Positions 1,637-37,293 of a DNA stretch of 43,294 nt are shown piece after piece. The translations under genes were made by a program, and so were the position numbers. Position 1 is the first letter of the stretch; each line of letters begins with the position of its first letter. A model generated the notes under the pieces. That model made no database searches, was not told the DNA's origin, and saw only the letters and a list, made by a program, of their open reading frames with translations. Origin of the DNA: a virus; IMG/VR virus record IMGVR_UViG_3300026223_000001; one strand, written 5' to 3'.

Positions 1637-2499
1637 TTCACCCTCTTGTGGATGGCGCTGGCGTTGTTTCCGTAGTCCTTGTCGTCGGCGTAGTAGCCCT
1701 GGTCGAAGAACCACTGGTCCAGGTCAGAGACGTTCTTCTTGACTGTCGCCAGGTCGTCGGCGAGTGGCTTGAGCGCCGCGTCCACCACGGCCTTGCATTC
1801 CTCTGGCGTCATGTCGTTACCTCCTGCTGGTTGTGTTGCGTAGAGAGCCCCGTCGATTACGTTGAGATCGCAGTTAACGCCGTGAACGTCCGTGCCGCCG
1901 CTGTACTGGTGTCCAACAAGTTTTGGGTGCATCGGACACAAGCCCAACCCGCACTCAAGCGTTGGTCGGATGTCGGCGTAGTCGGCGCGGTTGTAACCGT
2001 CGAGCACGGTTGAGTAGTCGTAGCGCTGGCCGGCGGCGTGCATTAGCGTCGTGAACCACGGCGAGCTGTAGCCAATCACCGGCACGGCTACAGTCCGCAG
2101 AACCGCGACGAACGCCAGCATGTCGTCGCTTTGGATGTACAAGCCGCCCTTATCGCTGATCTCGAAGTCCAACTCGATAAACGACACCTTGGCGAGTTCG
2201 GCTCCTGCTGCGCGTTGCGTTTCCTCCCACCAGTTCGCGGGGCCAATCGTGCCCCAAGGGTACGTCCAACGCGGCCCGGCGTTGGTGTAGATCGCTGTGC
2301 GGCCGCCGACCTGTCGCATATTGCGAAGCGAGTTCTGTGCGTTAGCCTGCATCGTGTCGTACAAGCCGCCGTTGCCCTTGCCGGCGTACCCGCCGCCCCA
2401 GACGCCTACCATGAGCCCCGTAGCGCCGTCAGCGAGCATCTGGTTGCACTGCGCGGGGCTCACCGCCGTGTAGGCGTCAGGCCAGCGTTCGAGCGTCAC
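1633..2499 (-). CDS. Endolysin candidate, GH25-like / glycoside-hydrolase TIM-barrel muramidase (288 aa)
   Basis: Track ORF 1633..2622. Start set to GTG 2499 (GTGA overlap with ORF 2496..2771). Contains ...SFIELDFEISDKGG.... The near-C-terminal HQYSGGTDVHGVNCDLNV resembles the GH25 WQYS..G.V.G..VDlN signature. Flanked by small membrane proteins. Confidence 0.5.
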   Translation of the reverse strand: MTLERWPDAYTAVSPAQCNQMLADGATGLMVGVWGGGYAGKGNGGLYDTMQANAQNSLRNMRQVGGRTAIYTNAGPRWTYPWGTIGPANWWEETQRAAGAELAKVSFIELDFEISDKGGLYIQSDDMLAFVAVLRTVAVPVIGYSSPWFTTLMHAAGQRYDYSTVLDGYNRADYADIRPTLECGLGLCPMHPKLVGHQYSGGTDVHGVNCDLNVIDGALYATQPAGGNDMTPEECKAVVDAALKPLADDLATVKKNVSDLDQWFFDQGYYADDKDYGNNASAIHKRVK

Positions 2500-2771
2500 T
2501 TGCGCCCCCACTTCAGAAAGTAGTGCCGCCCGCGAAGCCCCTGCCAACAAGAGCACTTGATGTCCATGGACAGATGACCGTCTAGACTCATGCCATCGAC
2601 AAACGCCATAGATTCGCCACAAGGCATCACGACGTTGATCTCGCCGCCTGCCGCTGCCAACTTGCGATAGTAATCTGCCTTGTTGGCCTTGGAGTGGCTG
2701 GCGATGTAAACGCCGTAGAGCTTAGAGCGCGGCCAGTCAGCGTTCAGCACAGGAAGAGTGATCGTTCTCAC
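2496..2771 (-). CDS. Hypothetical protein (91 aa)
   Basis: Track ORF with 4-nt overlaps at both ends (2768-2771 and 2496-2499). Confidence 0.5.
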   Translation of the reverse strand: MRTITLPVLNADWPRSKLYGVYIASHSKANKADYYRKLAAAGGEINVVMPCGESMAFVDGMSLDGHLSMDIKCSCWQGLRGRHYFLKWGRK

Positions 2772-3112
2772 TTCTTGGCCCTTCGTTTCGCTGCCCGGTC
2801 AACCAGCACGAATCGCTCATACAAGGGCACCTGCGCCACTGTCAGCGTCTTGGCCGCGTCCAGGGCTACAAGCGCCTCCTTGATGATCGTGGCGGCCCTG
2901 GGCCCAATCTCTACATCCTTCGGCGCGTCCTTGTCCCATCGGTAGACTGATTGAGCACCGACGCTCTCGACCCTCAAGTTCGATTCGGCGATCTCCGCTT
3001 CGTTTGGCGCAAGGTCGAGTCTGAGGTCGCTGAGTATCTTGAGGTCGGCGTAGGAGCCGGATGGCGGTAGGATGCTCTCGATGATGATGCGTTCGGCGAG
3101 TATCAGGTTCAC
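2768..3112 (-). CDS. Hypothetical protein (114 aa)
   Basis: Track ORF, ATGA-coupled to both neighbours, downstream of the fibre gene. Confidence 0.55.
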   Translation of the reverse strand: MNLILAERIIIESILPPSGSYADLKILSDLRLDLAPNEAEIAESNLRVESVGAQSVYRWDKDAPKDVEIGPRAATIIKEALVALDAAKTLTVAQVPLYERFVLVDRAAKRRAKK

Positions 3113-3348
3113 AAGCCCTCCTTTGTTTTGATGATCGTGGTTACAGCGGTGAACAGATTGGTTACCCCCGTCAGCAGCGCCCCGATGATCTCCGTCTGCG
3201 CGTCGCGGTGTATCACTTCCCCCTGCGCGGTCTGCACGTCGTAGCCCACGGCCAGGAAGTAGTGCAGCGTCACGCCGTCCGGGTCGAGGACGACGGATAG
3301 GCGCAGGCCGGGAAAGGTGATCCCTGTTTTCGTAAGTGTTGTCGCCAT
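3109..3348 (-). CDS. Hypothetical protein (79 aa)
   Basis: Track ORF. GGAGGA precedes the ATG at 3348. Confidence 0.55.
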   Translation of the reverse strand: MATTLTKTGITFPGLRLSVVLDPDGVTLHYFLAVGYDVQTAQGEVIHRDAQTEIIGALLTGVTNLFTAVTTIIKTKEGL

Positions 3349-26251: not shown

Positions 26252-26439
26252 GCAGTCACCACGATAGTTGTTTCCCGAAGTTTCTTTATCAGGTCGCGCA
26301 CTGCCGTTTCGCGTTCATCGAGAAACGTGAGAACGCGCCGAGCCTCGGGCCAATCTGGATACTGCTCAGCCATTTCTCGCAAAGGGGCGCCGGCCTCCAG
26401 TACTCGCTCGAGATGACTCATATCAACTTGCATCACCAC
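26248..26439 (-). CDS. Hypothetical protein (63 aa)
   Basis: Track ORF. Overlaps the TerL stop by 7 nt. Confidence 0.5.
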   Translation of the reverse strand: MVMQVDMSHLERVLEAGAPLREMAEQYPDWPEARRVLTFLDERETAVRDLIKKLRETTIVVTA

Positions 26440-28643
26440 TCCATTCTGACGTTAATATCGGGCGGGTGGGTAGGTTCGGAGAAGCGGTAGCTATCGGCCA
26501 TCATAGCATAGCGGTCGCAGTCGTAGGGATGGTCCTCGGCCTCGGTGTTCGTTACAAGCACGCCGTTAGCGTAATACAGGTGCGCGGCGTTCACGGTCAG
26601 ATTGTACACCCGCCTGACGCCTACGGAGTGCCCAGCCGCAGCGATACGAACAGGTTGTGGTCTTCGCGTCAATCGTCCGAAACGCTGCAGCGCACTCACT
26701 GCAAATCCGTTCAGGCTGTCGCGCCACCCGGTCGAGATAAGCGCACCGGGGCGAGCAGAGAATCTTTCGAGGATGTCTTGTTCTAAAAGTGACTCGACAA
26801 TATCCACACGCCAGTTCATGTTCAGGGGATCGTTCACGCATTTTGACGGCATTGGCGCGGAGAATCCTCCGGCCTCTTTCCGTCCCTCGCCACTCATGGA
26901 GACCGCGCTTCTGTACTGGGTTAGCGTTGCGGGCAGCGAGATGGAGAGAGGCGTGGTCACTGGGGCTAAGAACATGGAAGTTGGACGGCTCGTTGTGGGA
27001 TGTGTCGCCATCTTCGTGATGAACGTGGTAGCCCTGCGGAATCCCTTTGCCCACGATGGCATGAACGTCTCGGTACTGCGGTTTCTTGTATGGCATACGA
27101 TGTTCTTCTGCATCAGTGTATCATTCTTCCGCAGAGCCGACAACGGCACAAGACCGTGACCGCGCACGTAGACCTTGTGGTCGAGAGTGCCTTCGAGAAA
27201 CTGGCCGCCTGACAGAGGCACGTGAATAACCGGGGCGTCGCCGGAAATACCGTCTTTGATGATGGGACAGGGGCCGATGGGGGTATCCACCAACTCTCCA
27301 GCCTGTAATGTTTCAATTGCGCGATCTCCGTCCGGCGTCGATACCATCGTGCCCGCTACGAAGCAATCGACGTCTTCGATGTTCAATTCGTCCCTGGGCA
27401 AATTAGGAATGGTGCGAATGGCGTTGGGGCAATCCGTCGTCCAAACCCAGCGCGGCGGCATAATCAACTCGCCCAGATCGCCAACGTGTTCCGCCTTAGC
27501 CCGTATCCACCGGAGGTTCTTGCGGAACAAGTTAATGCCAGCCTGGCGGTTGTTGTTGCCCTTCGTCAGCGGCACACCGCCCTCGCGGTATTCGTCGGCC
27601 ACGGAATTGCCGACCGTCTCCTTACGCTGCTGCCACATCGAGGGGTCGCCCACGTACATCGAAATCCTTTCGTTTTTGCCTGCCGCCCGGATCATTTGAG
27701 CCTGTTCGGTGGCATGATGGCCGGGGCCGTACAACTCCCGGTACGTCACCACGCGCTTCTTATCTGGGCGGCGAGCGTGCCAGTGAGCGCAAAACGGGGC
27801 CATGTAGCCGTAGTCCACGCTGACGAACCGCGTCCAGTCCTTCGGTATCTCGAACGGCTGGATCACGTGCAGGTCGCGCCGCCAGACGTCGGCGAAGACC
27901 ATTCCCTCGGCGATGTCCCAATCGCCGTATCTGAGCGCCCGCGCCATGTCGCCGCCCATCGCTAACAGCGTCGCCTCGTAGCCGGGGTTGAGCGCCATGC
28001 CGATGGGGTTGTCCTCGAGCGTAGCCGGGATGAATCGCCGCGTGCGCGTCAGCTTCGAGCCATCGGCCAGGGTGATTGTGATCGGGTGCGAGCCGCCCAA
28101 CGGGTGTGGGTCGATGTAGCGTTGTTTCACCCAGCCATGCCCCAGGCCGCCGGGGTTCGTCGTCGCCGAGACCAGCGGCTTGCAGCCGGCGATCTTGCTC
28201 CGGCAGAAGGCGTTGACGTAGTTGAAGTCGTCCTCGTTCGGAAACTGCGTCAACTCCTCCCAGCCGATGTCCTCCCAGGCCGTCCCCTGCTGCCGGTAGC
28301 GGTCCTCTGAGTGATCCATGAAGTCGAACTTCATCACGGACCCGTTGTGAAACGTGAACTTGTGCTCGTCGCCCTTCCACGCCGCCCGCCCCTTGAGCAC
28401 TTCCATCGCCCGGGGGATCATCGCCCCCTCTTTCGTCAGGTCCGTCAAGTGACGCCTGAGAATCAGCGCTGCGCTCCCTGGATACTTCTCGCGCCGGAGG
28501 ATCATCTTGGCCAAGAGCGCCTCCGTCTTGCCGCCCCAGGCAGCGCCGCCGTACAGCACCTCGTCCTCACTGGCTCGCAGAAACTCCCGCTGCTTCTCCT
28601 GCAACTTCCACTGCCGGGGCCCCGCGTCAGGTGCCTGCGTCAC
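26433..28643 (-). CDS. terL: Terminase large subunit precursor, interrupted by an intein (736 aa; extein 463 aa)
   Basis: Walker A YGGAAWGGKTEA lies near the N-terminus. The C-terminal nuclease motif is ...NIEDVD|intein|TEAEDHPYDCDRYAMM. Exteins are 27366..28643 and 26433..26546. Confidence 0.85.
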   Translation of the reverse strand: MTQAPDAGPRQWKLQEKQREFLRASEDEVLYGGAAWGGKTEALLAKMILRREKYPGSAALILRRHLTDLTKEGAMIPRAMEVLKGRAAWKGDEHKFTFHNGSVMKFDFMDHSEDRYRQQGTAWEDIGWEELTQFPNEDDFNYVNAFCRSKIAGCKPLVSATTNPGGLGHGWVKQRYIDPHPLGGSHPITITLADGSKLTRTRRFIPATLEDNPIGMALNPGYEATLLAMGGDMARALRYGDWDIAEGMVFADVWRRDLHVIQPFEIPKDWTRFVSVDYGYMAPFCAHWHARRPDKKRVVTYRELYGPGHHATEQAQMIRAAGKNERISMYVGDPSMWQQRKETVGNSVADEYREGGVPLTKGNNNRQAGINLFRKNLRWIRAKAEHVGDLGELIMPPRWVWTTDCPNAIRTIPNLPRDELNIEDVDCFVAGTMVSTPDGDRAIETLQAGELVDTPIGPCPIIKDGISGDAPVIHVPLSGGQFLEGTLDHKVYVRGHGLVPLSALRKNDTLMQKNIVCHTRNRSTETFMPSWAKGFRRATTFITKMATHPTTSRPTSMFLAPVTTPLSISLPATLTQYRSAVSMSGEGRKEAGGFSAPMPSKCVNDPLNMNWRVDIVESLLEQDILERFSARPGALISTGWRDSLNGFAVSALQRFGRLTRRPQPVRIAAAGHSVGVRRVYNLTVNAAHLYYANGVLVTNTEAEDHPYDCDRYAMMADSYRFSEPTHPPDINVRMEW
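26547..27365 (-). mobile_element. Intein (273 aa) in the TerL nuclease domain
   Basis: Starts CFVAGTMVSTPDGDRAIETLQAGELV (block A) and contains GTLDH (block B TxxH). Ends VYNLTVNAAHLYYANGVLVTN followed by +1 Thr. Codon positions were checked against track coordinates (Cys codon 27363-27365, Asn codon 26547-26549). Confidence 0.8.
26566..27096 (-). CDS. HNH endonuclease (176 aa) nested in the intein, in a different reading frame from TerL
   Basis: Track ORF. YRDVHAIVGKGIPQGYHVHHEDGDTSHNEPSNFHVLSPSDHASLH is an HNH motif. Followed by CGYCRVTF...LCSPRCAY and CSECAAAF...CSYRCG zinc knuckles. (28643-27096) mod 3 = 2, so it is out of frame with TerL. Confidence 0.75.
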   Translation of the reverse strand: MPYKKPQYRDVHAIVGKGIPQGYHVHHEDGDTSHNEPSNFHVLSPSDHASLHLAARNANPVQKRGLHEWRGTERGRRILRANAVKMRERSPEHELACGYCRVTFRTRHPRKILCSPRCAYLDRVARQPERICSECAAAFRTIDAKTTTCSYRCGWALRRRQAGVQSDRERRAPVLR

Positions 28644-29650: not shown

Positions 29651-29836
29651 TTACGGTATCGCGTCCCAATCTTCGGCCTCGATGGCAGCGATAGTCTCGC
29701 AAGCGATTCGGCGCATATCGTGATAAGCGGCCCGGTACTCTATCCCGTTAACGGTCGTATCCTTGATAGCCTGAAGTGCGGCAAGAAGCGATGCGATCTC
29801 GGCGACGAGACACTCCGTTGCTTCTACCTGGATCAC
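29651..29836 (-). CDS. Hypothetical protein (61 aa) ending in EDWDAIP
   Basis: Track ORF, ATGA-coupled to the TerS-like gene. Confidence 0.45.
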   Translation of the reverse strand: MIQVEATECLVAEIASLLAALQAIKDTTVNGIEYRAAYHDMRRIACETIAAIEAEDWDAIP

Positions 29837-30285
29837 GGGATCGCGTCCCAGTCCTCTTGAGTGACGACTAGGTGCACCTGTGAGACGGTCACCGGCTGTG
29901 TCACCTTGCCGTCAACACGATCTAGCCATAGCTCCAACGCCCGGACCGAGTGCGCTTCGTTCGCGGTCGCCAACTTGTAGGCCGCCTCAACGATGTCGTC
30001 GTCGCAGCGTGAGCCTGGGTTCAGCTTAGACAGCTGTTGCCCCTTCGCGCGCATCTTGTCTGCTAGCGATTCACCGCGTTTAGGTCTGCCGGCGGGGTTG
30101 CCGGTTTGTCCTGGGAGCCAACCCGCACCAGTCGCACCGCCCAGCTTGTAAGTTGTATCGCTTCCGCGCGAGGCCGGTTGCTCAACTTGCAGCTGCCGTT
30201 CGTGTTCTGCTTGCGTTAACTCGAGTCGCTGAAGCCTAAGAGCAGGGCGTGTTGGTGTTAGCGGTTCGTCGTCGGGCTCGCTCAT
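29833..30285 (-). CDS. Terminase small subunit-like protein (150 aa) ending in EDWDAIP
   Basis: GQTGNPAGRPKRGES matches the GNPxGRPKG motif seen in many small-terminase-like (DUF5681-type) phage proteins. Lies ~1.2 kb upstream of TerL. Confidence 0.4.
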   Translation of the reverse strand: MSEPDDEPLTPTRPALRLQRLELTQAEHERQLQVEQPASRGSDTTYKLGGATGAGWLPGQTGNPAGRPKRGESLADKMRAKGQQLSKLNPGSRCDDDIVEAAYKLATANEAHSVRALELWLDRVDGKVTQPVTVSQVHLVVTQEDWDAIP

Positions 30286-30419
30286 ACTTCGTACCAGTGA
30301 TTGACCTGGAGCACGTAAGCGGTAAGTTTACGTGTCTCGGACAGTTCCAGCCCGAGAGTCACCGGGTTAACCCACTTGCCGTTCACGAGCACATCGTAGA
30401 AACGCGGCTTGTCGCTCAT
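30282..30419 (-). CDS. Hypothetical small protein (45 aa)
   Basis: Below the track cut-off. MSDKPRFYDVLVNGKWVNPVTLGLELSETRKLTAYVLQVNHWYEV. Its TGA overlaps the ATG of the TerS-like gene. Confidence 0.35.
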   Translation of the reverse strand: MSDKPRFYDVLVNGKWVNPVTLGLELSETRKLTAYVLQVNHWYEV

Positions 30420-30653
30420 GCCTGCAATCGTAGCACAAGCGCCGGTCGCCTATCCGTCTATGCGGAAGGATTCATGTAGTCGAATCGTCGCTAAACCCCT
30501 TGCATTGCCATCCATAGACGCGGATACTGCGAAGTGTCAGGCAACCCCTAGAGCGAAAGGTGAGAACAATGGCGAAGCTAATGTCCGCGGTAACTATCCC
30601 ATGACTGCCGAGATTGGGGTACACTGGCAGCGCGATGTCAACGCTGAAAGTGC

Positions 30654-31469
30654 CTATGAGGGCGGTGGGTCTTGAACAGGCCCGAGCTTGGATTCAGGGA
30701 TGAGGATGCCCGACTCATAGAAGAAGCGGGCGAACCGTGGCAGCACACGGTCTCTTACCTCCATCAACAGAGCGTTCAGGCAAGTGGCTACCTCAGCGCC
30801 CCGCGTCGGCCAAGTATTTTCAAAAGCTACCGAGAAGGTTGGGCGCACTTGCACGTCCATGTCTGCTGGAACGCGCAGCACTCCTGCCTCGTCTTCTTGA
30901 ACCCCCAGCCGGACTTGATCGACGGAAATAGTTTCGGGCGCAGCAACACTGAGGTGTTCGACCGACGGTTGAAGGATGCGGAGCATGCGGTGCTTGTCAA
31001 CTCGGTTGAAGTCATGGAGAAACATCAAGGGCTGTTCCTCAGCGTCATAAGGCCACGCGCCATGCCAGTCTTTCGGAACGTAGTAAGGCTGCAAACTCTG
31101 CACGACTGTCTTCGCTTCAACCCCAACGCCCTTCAAATAAGTCTGCTCATGTTTGAAGTAACCAACTTTGGTCGGGAAGATGGGAAACAGCAAGGTGCTA
31201 TAACGGTCGTCTGGACAGCCAGCCAAATTGAATATCAAGGAGTCGAGCGCAGAGCGGAGGTGGTGAAGAAACTCGCTCACCTCCAGGGTGAAGGTGTCCG
31301 GCGGGTCTGGGAAGAAGACGCCGATGAGCTTCTCTCCTGTGTTGGGGTCTATGCCGGTTCCCGTAGTGTGGGTGTTTCCCTTGATAAAGTCCGACATTTC
31401 GGTTTTGAGAGTGTCGAGCTGCTTCTCTGCCCGATCGACGCGCAAGCTACAAGAGGAAGGCAATCGCAT
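30654..31469 (-). CDS. Unrecognised 271-aa protein in the AT-richer accessory island (alternative start ATG 31397)
   Basis: Track ORF. Notable motifs are SEFLHHLRSALDSLIFNL and FLHDFNRVDKHRML. No family recognised. The antisense 343-aa ORF is a shadow. Confidence 0.6.
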   Translation of the reverse strand: MRLPSSCSLRVDRAEKQLDTLKTEMSDFIKGNTHTTGTGIDPNTGEKLIGVFFPDPPDTFTLEVSEFLHHLRSALDSLIFNLAGCPDDRYSTLLFPIFPTKVGYFKHEQTYLKGVGVEAKTVVQSLQPYYVPKDWHGAWPYDAEEQPLMFLHDFNRVDKHRMLRILQPSVEHLSVAAPETISVDQVRLGVQEDEAGVLRVPADMDVQVRPTFSVAFENTWPTRGAEVATCLNALLMEVRDRVLPRFARFFYESGILIPESKLGPVQDPPPS

Positions 31470-31623
31470 GCGTTACACTCAAATCATGGTGGGCAAGAAG
31501 ACGCAGAAGACCCCGAAGGGCTACGAGATTCCAGTACCGACACGCAAGGACTTCGACGCGATCTTGGACAAGGTAGCGAAGCCCCCGAAGCGCTCAACTC
31601 CCAAGCGCCGCCCGACCAAGTAG
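31468..31623 (+). CDS. Small basic protein (51 aa) divergent from the 271-aa gene
   Basis: Internal ATG of track ORF 31288..31623, preceded by GAGGAAGG at 8-nt spacing. MRYTQIMVGKKTQKTPKGYEIPVPTRKDFDAILDKVAKPPKRSTPKRRPTK. Confidence 0.45.
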   Translation: MRYTQIMVGKKTQKTPKGYEIPVPTRKDFDAILDKVAKPPKRSTPKRRPTK

Positions 31624-31956
31624 CGCCTCAAAGCGCGTCTCAGCCTCATAGCGCTGGTTGTACCGCCAAGCGTACTCATTCAGGTAGCCCTGAAGATGCT
31701 TAGCGGACACCGAATGGTAGACGCCACCAATGCCGCGCTTCACGAGCGACCAAAATCCCTCAATCGTGTTCGTGTGGATGTCCCCGCTCACGTAGACCTT
31801 CGCCGAGTGATTGATGCGCCGGTGCCCATAGCCCTGTTTAGTGAGCCGGTCGTAGACCTTGTATTCGTCGGTGTAGACCATCGACGCGGGCATGACCCGA
31901 TTGACGATGTGCGGCATGACGGTAGCGCGGGCAACGTTCGGGACAGTCATAGCCAC
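31594..31956 (-). pseudogene. IS1595-family (ISXO2-like) transposase, C-terminal fragment only
   Basis: ...SMVYTDEYKVYDRLTKQGYGHRRINHSAKVYVSGDIHTNTIEGFWSLVKRGIGGVYHSVSAKHLQGYLNEYAWRYNQR matches the C-terminal DDE-domain region of IS1595 transposases. The N-terminal zinc-ribbon and first catalytic region are missing, and no inverted repeats were seen. Confidence 0.65.
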
Positions 31957-31986
31957 GACCTTCCCGCGCCGCCATCGAGGCCGCCG

Positions 31987-32103
31987 GTGCGTAAGCTCTC
32001 ACGCTGCCAACACTGCGGCTGGACCTGGTTTCGGCGCCCAGGACCACGGCCCGCACGCTGCCCACAAGCGAAGTGCCGAAGCATGAACTGGGATCGGAAA
32101 TAA
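31987..32103 (+). CDS. Zinc-ribbon micro-protein (38 aa)
   Basis: In-frame GTG within track ORF 31696..32103, preceded by GAGG. (M)RKLSRCQHCGWTWFRRPGPRPARCPQAKCRSMNWDRK has a CxxC...CxxxC pattern. Confidence 0.35.
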   Translation: MRKLSRCQHCGWTWFRRPGPRPARCPQAKCRSMNWDRK

Positions 32104-32198
32104 TGGGCGTCATAGAGGATTGGGCTCTAATCTTTGCGTGTTTTCTGCTCGCCCTTGTCATTGGCCTTGGCCTTCTGTTGGGCGACGCACTGAAATGA
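32103..32198 (+). CDS. 31-aa hydrophobic peptide
   Basis: ATG overlaps the preceding TAA (TAATG). MGVIEDWALIFACFLLALVIGLGLLLGDALK is one TM helix. Its TGA overlaps a further ATG (ATGA). Confidence 0.3.
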   Translation: MGVIEDWALIFACFLLALVIGLGLLLGDALK

Positions 32199-32218
32199 AA
32201 AAGGCACTTAGGCAGGAA

Positions 32219-32247
32219 CTTGAGCGCCAGTTACGCTGGCGCTCAAG
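32219..32247. promoter_or_regulatory. Perfect 12-bp inverted repeat with a 5-nt loop
   Basis: CTTGAGCGCCAG-ttacg-CTGGCGCTCAAG. Confidence 0.7.
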
Positions 32248-32405
32248 AATCTTCCAAAATGCTAGTCGAGGCTATAGAGATTCAGGGCGCGATTGCCAGG
32301 CTTAGCGCGAGAAATTTAGAAGCGACAACTAAAGAAGAGCTGGCCGAAATTACCTTGCGAATCAAAGAGCTGACGGCGCGCCAAAAAGCCCTAACGCGCC
32401 CCTAA
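32220..32405 (+). CDS. Hypothetical coiled-coil-like protein (61 aa; real start uncertain, possibly ATG 32259)
   Basis: Track ORF. ...MLVEAIEIQGAIARLSARNLEATTKEELAEITLRIKELTARQKALTRP. It competes with the frame 32195..32305 (MKKALRQELERQ...). Confidence 0.3.
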   Translation: MSASYAGAQESSKMLVEAIEIQGAIARLSARNLEATTKEELAEITLRIKELTARQKALTRP

Positions 32406-32414
32406 CGCACAACA

Positions 32415-32457
32415 AGACGCCCCGCTGAAAAGGGAGAACTTAAACAGCGGGACGTCT
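32415..32457. terminator. Hairpin between convergent genes (bidirectional terminator candidate)
   Basis: AGACGCCCCGCTG-17 nt-CAGCGGGACGTCT forms a 13-bp stem with one mismatch. It lies between the plus-strand ORF end (32405) and the minus-strand ORF end (32482). Confidence 0.4.
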
Positions 32458-32481
32458 CTGCGTCTGGAGGAACGCCTATGT

Positions 32482-32748
32482 TTAGGGGCCAGCAGGAGCC
32501 GCTGGCGTAGGCGCTGGGGCCGGAGTGGTATCAGCAGCCACCTCAGCGTCCAGAGCGGCCTGGATCGCGCTGTCCTTGGCTGCTAGGCCCGCCAGCGCGT
32601 CAGTCACGGACTGCGGAATCGCGCCCGGAACCTGCGCCGCGCGAATCGCCGCCGTCTCCGTCGCGATCTGTGCGATGCTCTTCGAATTGCTATCGAACGC
32701 TGCGTTGAGCAGGTTGATTGCGGTTAGGGTTTCTTGTTCTGTCGCCAT
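32482..32748 (-). CDS. Hypothetical protein (88 aa)
   Basis: Track ORF 32482..32868. The likely start is ATG 32748 (MATEQETLTAINLL...). Ala/Pro-rich tail. Confidence 0.45.
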   Translation of the reverse strand: MATEQETLTAINLLNAAFDSNSKSIAQIATETAAIRAAQVPGAIPQSVTDALAGLAAKDSAIQAALDAEVAADTTPAPAPTPAAPAGP

Positions 32749-32896
32749 AATTTCCCAATCCCTTCTGAGTATGCGGATTACTAGATGCTCGATTTGGTGT
32801 AGGTGGCTGTGCAACGCTACGTTGCCGAGTTCCCACGTTTCATGTGCGTGCTCGTCGTTCATACGCATTGGATTATACGCTTATACCTTTGCGCGT

Positions 32897-33466
32897 TCAA
32901 TCACCTCCCGTCTTCGCTGCATGTGCGGCCTCGATTCGTGTGAGCGCGTCGTCGGTCATGGGTCCCCGCCCGTTTCTTCGTCTTTGAGGCCGTCCCCCTG
33001 TCAAGGGGGATTTAGGGGGTCTTCCGGAGGAAGTGTTGCCATTAACCGTGTTACCGCCCCCATTCCCCATGTTACCGGCGGATTGCTCTCGTTTTACTCT
33101 GAGAGCAGGATTATAGCCCTCTGGTGCTGGAATTAAGCTCGGTAATTCATTGACGTGCGGAAATTGGTGCTTAGGCCAGTTAATCACCTGAATATACCTG
33201 TCTGTGCCAGAGGCGTATCGGATTATGAACCCGGATGCGACAAGGGAGGCCAACGCAGCCTCGCAGTCTATGTCATCGAATGGCATGATCTCGGCCTTTA
33301 GCTTCCGTGGACGGTCCCTAACGCGGCCTTCGCGGTCGCTTACTGTCCATAATCCGATGAACATGAGGCGAGTTAATGGGCTTAAATCTGCCAAGTCGTC
33401 ATTAGTGAAAAAGCCTGGTTTAATCGCTCGGATGCGTGGCACCTTTATGCCCGTTCGCTTTCCCAA
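32897..33466 (-). CDS. Replication-associated / winged-helix DNA-binding protein candidate (189 aa; alternative GTG start 33442)
   Basis: The N-terminal PRIRAIKPGFFTNDDLADLSPLTRLMFIGLWTVSDREGRV...YIQVINWPKHQ resembles N-termini of phage replication/DnaD-like proteins. Recognised by eye only. Confidence 0.35.
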   Translation of the reverse strand: MGKRTGIKVPRIRAIKPGFFTNDDLADLSPLTRLMFIGLWTVSDREGRVRDRPRKLKAEIMPFDDIDCEAALASLVASGFIIRYASGTDRYIQVINWPKHQFPHVNELPSLIPAPEGYNPALRVKREQSAGNMGNGGGNTVNGNTSSGRPPKSPLTGGRPQRRRNGRGPMTDDALTRIEAAHAAKTGGD

Positions 33467-35963: not shown

Positions 35964-36055
35964 GGCTTGCCGTCGAATCTGTTCCCCGTACAGCCGATGG
36001 AATTGTGGTAGTTATAGCCATGTCCGCAAAGGCAGATCGTCGGTGGGTACTTCAC
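35939..36055 (-). CDS. Small Cys/His protein (38 aa)
   Basis: In-frame GTG 36055 overlaps the RecT TGA (GTGA) within track ORF 35939..36133. (M)KYPPTICLCGHGYNYHNSIGCTGNRFDGKPCRCKVTS. Confidence 0.35.
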   Translation of the reverse strand: MKYPPTICLCGHGYNYHNSIGCTGNRFDGKPCRCKVTS

Positions 36056-37293
36056 GCCATCCGCCCTTGCTCGACCGGCGCGCCCACGCCGCCCAGCTCG
36101 CCGTCGTCGGGTGCTTCGTGGGCAACGCCCCACGCCTCGTTGACGCGGAAGAGGAGAAGGTCAAGCAGGTCAGCCACCTCACGCGGAGCCTTGCCGCCCT
36201 TCGCCTTCGATCGCGCCGACAGGCTGCGCTGTTGTTCGTGCAACTGCGCCATGTCGCGCACCTGCGCCACGCGGCACACGAACGCCGCGTCAGCGCCTAT
36301 CGCCTCGACGTCGCGCCAGAACGGCGGGTAGGGGTCGGCTTCGTGGACGGGCTCGGATGCGTCTGTTCCCAAAGCGTCGGCGTGGGTCGCTATGTGACGT
36401 TGCCTCGGCGTCGCCAACTCTTCGGACATTGCGTCACCCGGGCGAGACGCTACAGGCGTTGCGTCTGCTGGCGGCTCGGCGCGCGACGCCTCGGCAAGCA
36501 GTACCAGCCGTTCCTCGAGCTCGGCCAGCACTTCGGCCAGCGTCTTCCCCTCGCGTTCCGCCTTCGCCGCCACAGACGCTGCCAGCGCCCCGTCCTCCGG
36601 GCCGACGCCCGCGAAGTCATGGACGAACGCATGGGACTGCCCACGCTCCGTACTGCGCGCCCAGAAGCCCGCCCAGGGCGACGGTAGCCCCTCGGGCGGC
36701 GCGTGTATCTCCATCGGCGCTTCGATGACGTGCCCCTCGATGTACGGCTCTTCGTCGCGCACGTCGGCCCCGCAGAGCACCGCCGGGCAGTACGTCTTGA
36801 CGCCGTGCGACATCGCCCGGGCAAACAGCATCGTGCCCGGCCACTGCACCCAGTTGCCGTACGACTTCACGAGCCCGGCCCGGCGCGCGTCTTCGATGGT
36901 GAACGCCGAGACGCCGAGCAGATGGCCGCGCCGGAAGAACGCGACCCGCGCCTCGTCGTCTTCCTTCTTCTCGACCTTGTACGAGTAGTCAGGGTGCCGG
37001 TCCACAAGCGCCGCCAGCAGGACGTAGCCTACATGGATCTTCGGCGGCTTCGGGTTGCCGTCCTTGTCCTTCGTCACGATCACATGGATGTAGTTGAGCG
37101 AGTCCACCAGGCCGAAGCCCATATCCCGCCCCACCGCCAGCTTGAACGCGGCCTGGGCCACGCTCGTAATGTCCGGGTAGTAGCCCGACGCGGCGACCAT
37201 GCCCGCCGTCGCCATCAGGTCTTGCGGCATCCCAGCGACCCACGCCGGAGGCACCTTTTGTACCGCCGTCGTCTGTCCGTCTGCCTGCGTCAT
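36052..37293 (-). CDS. recT: RecT-family single-strand annealing protein with C-terminal extension (413 aa)
   Basis: The N-terminal ~210 aa (...FKLAVGRDMGFGLVDSLNYIHVI...IHVGYVLLAALV...FTIEDARRAGL...WVQWPGTMLFARAMSHGVKTYCP...) match the RecT core pattern W..yP..ML..RA. Confidence 0.55.
   Translation of the reverse strand: MTQADGQTTAVQKVPPAWVAGMPQDLMATAGMVAASGYYPDITSVAQAAFKLAVGRDMGFGLVDSLNYIHVIVTKDKDGNPKPPKIHVGYVLLAALVDRHPDYSYKVEKKEDDEARVAFFRRGHLLGVSAFTIEDARRAGLVKSYGNWVQWPGTMLFARAMSHGVKTYCPAVLCGADVRDEEPYIEGHVIEAPMEIHAPPEGLPSPWAGFWARSTERGQSHAFVHDFAGVGPEDGALAASVAAKAEREGKTLAEVLAELEERLVLLAEASRAEPPADATPVASRPGDAMSEELATPRQRHIATHADALGTDASEPVHEADPYPPFWRDVEAIGADAAFVCRVAQVRDMAQLHEQQRSLSARSKAKGGKAPREVADLLDLLLFRVNEAWGVAHEAPDDGELGGVGAPVEQGRMA

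Follow-up and report, generated by a model that had tools for sequence, protein, structure and literature searches.

The window analyzed here is the whole 43,294-nt stretch of DNA held as IMG/VR virus record IMGVR_UViG_3300026223_000001, which is phage-like in character and carries nearly all of its genes on the minus strand. Our subject is a gene for a 271-aa protein (30654-31469, -), a divergent open reading frame (ORF) of 51 aa beside it (31468-31623, +; 45 aa if started at ATG 31486), and the remains of an insertion sequence (IS) that contains both. A first-pass annotation of the sequence had presented the two ORFs as a candidate moron, exclusion module or toxin-antitoxin-like pair with a shared start-codon palindrome, and much of its description of the locus is confirmed. 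Both ORFs exist, and the plus-strand ATG (31468-31470) and minus-strand ATG (31469-31467) have CATG in common, inside GCATGC (31466-31471). A Shine-Dalgarno-like GAGGAAGG (31453-31460, +) stands 7 nt upstream of ATG 31468. The pair does lie between early, replication-type genes (32897-33466) and the packaging module with its large terminase (TerL) gene (26433-28643), and it is indeed low in G+C, at 0.559 for 30654-31623 against a window mean of 0.621 (sd 0.028 in 970-bp windows). Just 2.5% of 970-bp windows are equally low, and the entire 29.3-33.5 kb stretch is also low. What had been overlooked is the neighboring transposase fragment and, with it, the truncated IS around the genes.

Beside the small ORF, and overlapping its 3' end, lies a transposase fragment (ORF 31594-31956, -). 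It matches Pfam PF12762 (E=2e-30, 106 bits; cut-off 27) and NCBIfam NF033547 (E=7e-29, 101 bits; cut-off 75), and together with its stop codon (31594-31971, -) it corresponds to residues 187-311 of a 311-residue IS1595-family DDE transposase. A complete relative was found on a metagenome contig, L001, where a 2-kb element encloses an 89%-identical homolog of the 271-aa protein; between 37-nt inverted repeats it carries a 311-aa IS1595 transposase, an opposite-strand small ORF overlapping the transposase 3' end, and a 270-aa gene. Using blastn, window positions 30589-31972 aligned with L001 2367-986 at 90.5% identity over 1385 nt, one limit of the alignment falling exactly at the repeat terminus GGTAACTATCCC and the other within the transposase gene. 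With the L001 transposase as the tblastn query, 119 of 125 residues were identical in the window, and none upstream of these matched. The right terminal inverted repeat of the window copy, GGTAACTATCCCATGACTGCCGAGA (30589-30613; core TATCCCATGACTG at 30595-30607), matches the inverted repeats of L001 and also the termini GG(T/C)(A/G)A(T/C)TATCCCTTGAC that target duplications define in L015, L115, L057, L096, L098 and L107. The repeat core occurs only once, so that the second terminal inverted repeat, which intact relatives carry, is absent from the window.

The transposase fragment, the L001 match that ends at a terminal repeat, and the single repeat together identify 30589-31972 as a decayed, 5'-truncated IS1595-family transporter IS (tIS) in a phage genome. 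The right end of the element survives, as does the final (3') third of its transposase gene, and the cargo gene and small ORF are both intact, the cargo occupying the passenger position that the transposase fragment and right repeat bound. Missing are the left inverted repeat and 186 codons at the start of the transposase gene; having lost that repeat and two thirds of its transposase gene, the element is immobile. L001 shows no target duplication, and the window copy has a single end. Such an IS scar is in itself a familiar kind of feature. For the whole explanation, a tIS relic whose cargo acts as an effector, we estimate a probability of about 0.6.

The proposal of a moron stands in its broad sense, as the element is a foreign insert of deviant G+C between the replication-initiator gene and the DUF5681 (29833-30285, flanking the insert on the packaging side) and TerL genes. 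It does not extend to a promoter and terminator of the insert's own. A scan of 30300-32500 for one promoter type found no sigma-70-like site, and so none near either start; terminator-like matches did not exceed shuffled expectation. No phage with an empty insertion site was found among IMG/VR viral contigs searched with the window protein and the flanking DUF5681 protein, and blastn of the region against phage records returned nothing. Between the window and L001, the ratio of nonsynonymous to synonymous divergence (dN/dS) is 0.28 for the cargo and 0.045 for the transposase fragment, and the value of 0.28 places the cargo under purifying selection. Synonymous divergence itself is far higher in the transposase fragment (31594-31971; dS 0.51) than in the adjacent cargo (30654-31469; dS 0.19), which suggests that the two halves of the element have had different histories and that the whole is a mosaic.

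The 271-aa protein belongs to a large uncharacterized family. A word-indexed search recovered only 12 relatives, while a profile search that covered 1.84 billion representatives yielded 18,948 at E<=1e-3 and 13,839 at E<=1e-10. Members are nearly all 240-300 aa long and single-domain, and the family is mostly non-viral. Its signature motifs are G-D-x2-H-N-L-R-S-A-L-D-H-L, F-P-I, L-Q-P-Y and L-x-N-x-D-K-H-R; both motifs quoted in the first-pass annotation are signature motifs of the family. Conserved residues comprise K/R10, R13, A14, H17, G65, D66, H69, N70, R72, S73, D76, H77, F95, P96, Q127, P128, Y129, D158, K159, H160 (invariant) and R161. Residues 10-14 (K/R10, R13, A14) are near-invariant and Met1 aligns with the starts of homologs, which refutes the suggestion that the gene begins at ATG 31397; the predicted start is ATG 31469, or just possibly TTG 31445 (the Joint Genome Institute call).

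Among 112 diverse members there were no matches in Pfam, NCBIfam, PADLOC (E<=0.01) or PHROGs, in agreement with the earlier remark that the large protein has no recognizable phage core function. Against PADLOC-DB v2 the window protein matched only DpdD, at E=0.029, which is noise, and PDB sequence and profile searches with the protein and its family were empty. An AlphaFold2 model built on a deep alignment (pLDDT 85, pTM 0.82) has a helical core (helices 5-30, 58-82, 101-125, 147-160 and 227-251), a beta-hairpin and a small sheet. Foldseek comparison of two AlphaFold2 models with the PDB found no relative (best E=0.4). Against BFVD, Foldseek gave a single unnamed viral match of 275 aa, A0A514TZW7, which from its length and homology is probably gp32 of Gordonia phage Samba. 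The family is thus very large, unannotated and without a solved structural relative.

To place the family in its genomic contexts, species-representative genomes were scanned for the HNLRSALDH motif, which gave 206 loci, 80 of them examined; a scan with the narrow HDFNRVDK pattern gave nothing. Gene calls at these 80 loci came from a third-codon-position G+C (GC3) heuristic and are approximate, and transposases, family members and small ORFs were detected independently of those calls with hidden Markov models on stop-to-stop ORFs. A transposase lay within 5 kb of the member in 33 of the 80 genomes (IS1595 in 25, IS1-like in 5, DDE_Tnp_1 in 3), and clustering of all neighbors left the IS1595 transposase as the sole recurrent one. 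None of the three transposase types was within 5 kb at 47 of the 80 genome loci and 19 of 22 viral loci. The 47 other genome loci are heterogeneous, with methyltransferases, integrases, a reverse transcriptase, an IS66 transposase and housekeeping genes; comparison of the family with a DUF5677 neighbor by hhalign indicated no relation.

Perfect 8-bp target duplications flank L015 (TCTCACGA), L115 (GTCAAGGC), L057 (ACTTCAGT) and L089 (AGCGATAT), where repeats and duplications enclose the member, and likewise L096, L098 and L107. The duplication-flanked elements are real mobile units. Intact relatives of the window element run from the left repeat through the DDE transposase, the opposite-strand small ORF on its 3' end and the cargo to the right repeat. 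Three architectures were seen: the member lies downstream of the transposase and co-oriented with it (A), upstream and divergent, with the transposase between small ORF and member (B), or downstream and convergent (C). The idea that the member always reads outward to the nearest repeat was discarded, being contradicted by architecture C.

Other transposase families carry members as well. At L006 (91-3558), 29-nt inverted repeats (93% complementary) surround two helix-turn-helix genes, a DDE_Tnp_1 transposase and, 20 bp downstream, a member; the element may represent an IS with a passenger gene that belongs to neither the IS1595 nor the IS66 family. Loci L102, L055 and L067 show the same transposase-member adjacency. 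In L008 (4035-5729), as in L113, a member begins 15 bp after an IS1-like transposase whose PF03400 score, 25.7 bits, narrowly exceeds the cut-off, and the L008 contig arrangement was recovered in seven sequencing runs. L002 holds a second, apparently frameshifted family copy (2248-3197), 3 kb from the N-terminally truncated homolog P0005.

Members also occur away from such elements. Gordonia phage Samba gp32 belongs to the family (E=1e-40) and sits in a reverse-oriented two-gene insert among the minor tail genes of this temperate phage. The adjoining gp33 (L120, 4416-4907; 163 aa) contains RNHVEH, an Rx4H motif of the HEPN type; a PDB sequence search with gp33 gave only noise and hhalign detected no relation to the 271-aa family. 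Plasmid copies occupy accessory regions of actinobacterial plasmids. In the Citricoccus plasmid NZ_CP133844.1 (L007) the member (26631-27488) has a helicase-related gene of ~6.5 kb on one side and a DNA methyltransferase gene of 2.8 kb on the other, and the neighborhood resembles a defense island. Overall, IS1595, IS1-like and DDE_Tnp_1 elements have acquired family members repeatedly and in several orientations, and other copies stand alone in phages, plasmids and chromosomes. The family is the preferred cargo of IS1595-type elements in Actinomycetota, Acidobacteriota, Chloroflexota, Planctomycetota and others.

The small ORF had been taken for a gene, and this is borne out. Its family comprises 143 clusters of 44-60 aa with the consensus MPKTNGDxPTQxT...GxEIPIPTREEVFRDLGKVAKPRK. 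In the cores EIPVPTR and LxKVAKP, the window and L015 copies show 11 differences in 12 conserved codons and all 11 are synonymous; the large proteins of the two elements are just ~21-27% identical. Because core changes are synonymous only and the family is conserved, the small ORF is, judged by its sequence, a genuine conserved gene belonging to the IS backbone of one IS1595 lineage. The start used by most homologs is the Met equivalent to window ATG 31486. In the window, L001, L024 and P0377 an in-frame MRYTQxM extension follows the Shine-Dalgarno motif, which is also present in L001, and the 51-aa form is plausible in the window because that motif precedes the extension.

Wherever it was seen, the small ORF converges on the 3' end of an IS1595 transposase gene and adjoins or overlaps it. 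The gene on its other flank varies. It is a 271-aa family member in the window, L001, L015, L024, L086, L115 and L121, an unrelated 260-aa Cys-rich protein in L028-L035, and a DUF5343-like protein in L025-L027. The Cys-rich cargo (L028, 923-1705; L029-L035), marked by FCPKAADSLEDVFSTWF...CRKCNYTWMSDWE, has no Pfam, PADLOC or PDB match; the 242-aa protein of L025 (3109-3837; also L026 and L027) has a weak full-length match to DUF5343 (E=0.0066), under the cut-off. Conversely, the small ORF is absent near the member at 64 of 80 genome loci and 21 of 22 viral loci, including members next to IS1-like or DDE_Tnp_1 transposases, those on plasmids and those in most phages. Clustering of all neighbors at the 80 loci, those without an IS included, revealed no other conserved small partner. 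The dedicated pair proposed earlier therefore does not hold, since the small ORF follows an IS1595 transposase lineage with three mutually unrelated cargo types. The shared palindrome is likewise incidental: L001 has GCATGG, the starts in L015 are separated by a 22-bp gap, and those in L024 overlap by 11 nt. GCATGC was accordingly rejected as a regulatory element, the palindrome not being conserved.

The small protein has no Pfam, NCBIfam or PADLOC match, and a PDB profile search with its family was empty. It is basic, and its fixed site at the transposase 3' end, together with a divergent gap of 16-22 bp to the cargo, leads us to hypothesize that it would most likely be an IS-encoded regulator of transposase or cargo expression. 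We found neither this recurrent cargo family nor the conserved, transposase-convergent ORF of 45-60 aa described in the literature searched; ISfinder lay outside that search, and prior cataloguing there is possible.

Whether the 271-aa protein serves transposition or merely travels with it was judged from how the two genes vary. Across 26 pairs, transposase identity hardly predicts cargo identity (Spearman 0.13). The transposases of L083 and L088 are 93% identical and their members 26-29%, and their DNA homology, which takes in small ORF and transposase gene, stops at the 5' end of the latter, the cargo boundary. Conversely, L040 and L042 share members that are 88% identical beside transposases that are 63% identical, in different orientation. 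L090 equals L089 plus one extra member cassette. Tandem divergent paralogs, 19-30% identical to each other, occur in L015 (1512-2306 and 2348-3157), L059, L088 and L090. Since near-identical transposases carry members that are ~26% identical, the cargo is, on these comparisons, exchanged like a cassette. The 271-aa protein is a cargo and no core component of transposition, because the same IS lineage with its small ORF carries unrelated cargos and cargo and transposase do not co-diverge.

An accessory role is nevertheless the rival that survives best. IstB serves IS21 in a comparable way, and TnpB promotes retention of IS200/IS605. The 271-aa protein could similarly aid the movement or retention of IS1595-, IS1- and DDE_Tnp_1-type elements through an effect on the donor site, the IS ends or the host response. 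Such a factor would account for members lying 7-160 bp from a transposase gene, inside the inverted repeats, in many elements of three transposase families, and for the 41% of genome loci with such a transposase within 5 kb. It would also have to dispense with any co-divergence, act from variable positions and orientations in three architectures, and be unnecessary to an IS lineage that transposes with unrelated cargos. Most genome copies and 19 of the 22 viral copies lack the screened transposases nearby, and the window cargo is intact beside a dead transposase. We regard an accessory or fitness factor as unlikely.

We hypothesize instead that the cargo would act independently of transposition, as an effector in mobile element-host conflict, in defense or exclusion or in counter-defense. 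Cassette swapping, tandem paralogs and residence on IS, phages and plasmids all fit an autonomous effector, to which we give somewhat less than an even chance. Conserved basic residues and a His/Asp cluster (K/R10, R13, R72, D76, D158, K159, H160 and R161) come together on three helices in the model and alignment, and this clustering is why we propose that the protein is probably an enzyme acting on nucleic acid or a nucleotide. The same residues could form a metal-independent site of the phosphotransfer or nuclease type. In this phage the cargo gene points the same way as its phage neighbors, so it could be expressed from phage transcripts.

One version of an effector, and an option that overlaps with ours, is an abortive-infection (Abi)-type HEPN RNase, in line with the HEPN-like helical domains suggested before. 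The family consensus RSALDH does read Rx4H on a long helix, the core is a helical bundle, basic and His residues are conserved, and the Samba member adjoins the small protein with RNHVEH. The Arg of this motif (R72) is present in 110 of 112 members, but the His at +5 (H77) is found in only 83 of the 112 and is Ser77 in the window protein, while the invariant His belongs to another motif, DKHR. No HEPN or Abi model in Pfam or PADLOC matched any of the 112 members, and Foldseek retrieved no HEPN structure. An RNase of this class is improbable.

More improbable by a clear step is a toxin-antitoxin or addiction pair that stabilizes the element. In seven elements (the window, L001, L015, L024, L086, L115 and L121) the genes do stand close together in divergent orientation, and the small protein is basic and conserved. 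The small ORF, however, also accompanies two other, unrelated cargos, in architecture B has the transposase gene between itself and the member, and is missing from most member loci, where no other conserved small neighbor replaces it. The genes are divergent and form no operon, and no toxin, antitoxin or PADLOC model was matched. The possibility of an ordinary phage replication or packaging gene with IS debris nearby by coincidence, suggested by co-orientation with the flanking phage genes, is effectively refuted by the block matching the complete IS L001 at 90.5% to its repeat terminus, the lack of any PHROG match, a G+C below that of the phage and the mostly non-viral family.

Several observations weigh against the effector cargo on a tIS relic that we prefer. 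Neither experiment nor homology gives the 271-aa family any activity, and it has no PADLOC model. The putative Rx4H His is replaced in 26% of members, the window protein among them. Tight, repeated linkage to transposases is also compatible with a protein that directly helps transposons; the non-IS neighborhoods are mixed and are not clear defense islands; and the promoter scan described above found nothing near the cargo start. As for subgroup, the termini GGTAACTAT, GGCGATTAT and GGTAATTAT (GGnnAyTATCCC) resemble the ISNwi1-subgroup end consensus of ISfinder, ggnnatTAT, which makes placement in that subgroup a tentative lead only.

Transporter IS are IS1595-family elements with passenger genes according to Siguier, Gagnevin and Chandler (2009), as cited in PMC3129680, and tIS are described as restricted to the IS1595 and IS66 families (TnCentral preprint 10.1101/2021.05.26.445724). 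The elements reported here resemble them in a PF12762/NF033547-type DDE transposase, short terminal inverted repeats, one to three extra genes inside the repeats and, in intact relatives, 8-bp target duplications. The window copy differs as a truncated, immobile relic inside a phage. Toxin-antitoxin passenger modules are known to be integrated in Tn3-family transposons, where they likewise form a small accessory module beside transposition genes; the window genes, in contrast, are a non-obligate, divergent pair that matches no toxin or antitoxin family. With TnpB and IscB of IS200/IS605 and IS607 the 271-aa family has in common that a non-transposase protein recurs beside several transposase families and also in stand-alone copies. 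It differs in having no similarity to TnpB or IscB in sequence or fold and no co-divergence with the transposase, and a conserved non-coding region of guide-RNA type was not seen here (an Rfam scan was empty). Gordonia phage CarolAnn gp43/gp44 exemplify prophage-expressed defense morons of actinobacteriophages (PMC6426606). The likeness lies in a small foreign gene set between phage modules, as with Samba gp32 in its tail-gene insert; the 271-aa family, however, has no known defense phenotype and no similarity to RexAB-like or other tested systems.

In the flanking DNA, the region 31973-32896 is low in G+C and holds short ORFs only, for which reason the deletion that cut the IS short may have taken phage DNA as well. 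The replication-initiator-like ORF (32897-33466, -) lies 0.9 kb from the IS break point, and its match covers positions 3-119 of a 315-position PHROG replication initiator profile. A RecT-like gene lies farther on (36052-37293). A 343-aa plus-strand ORF (30672-31703) antisense to the 271-aa gene was dismissed as a shadow ORF typical of G+C-rich DNA and no gene.

For this phage the message is modest: what it holds of the IS is a scar, with a cargo gene that is still intact and subject to purifying selection. The main interest lies in the cargo family, together with a small ORF conserved in one IS1595 lineage. Insertion sequences are normally viewed as carrying just what movement requires. Here, a protein family of ~14,000 clusters, without annotation or structural relative in the libraries searched, recurs on small DDE elements, and 93%-identical transposases with 26%-identical members, along with tandem divergent paralogs, form a pattern usual for arms-race genes. 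It is possible, again at somewhat less than an even chance, that the family is a new class of mobile-element effector with a fold unlike those in the PDB, serving as a single-gene anti-phage or anti-plasmid defense, in counter-defense or as a protein-only, TnpB-like fitness factor, carried by small DDE insertion sequences as swappable, rapidly diversifying cassettes, with the small ORF as a hitherto undescribed regulator of one IS1595 lineage. Should a role in defense, counter-defense or transposon fitness prove true, the list of known carriers of such genes would grow to include the smallest mobile elements, and a great deal of protein sequence that now lacks annotation would acquire a function.

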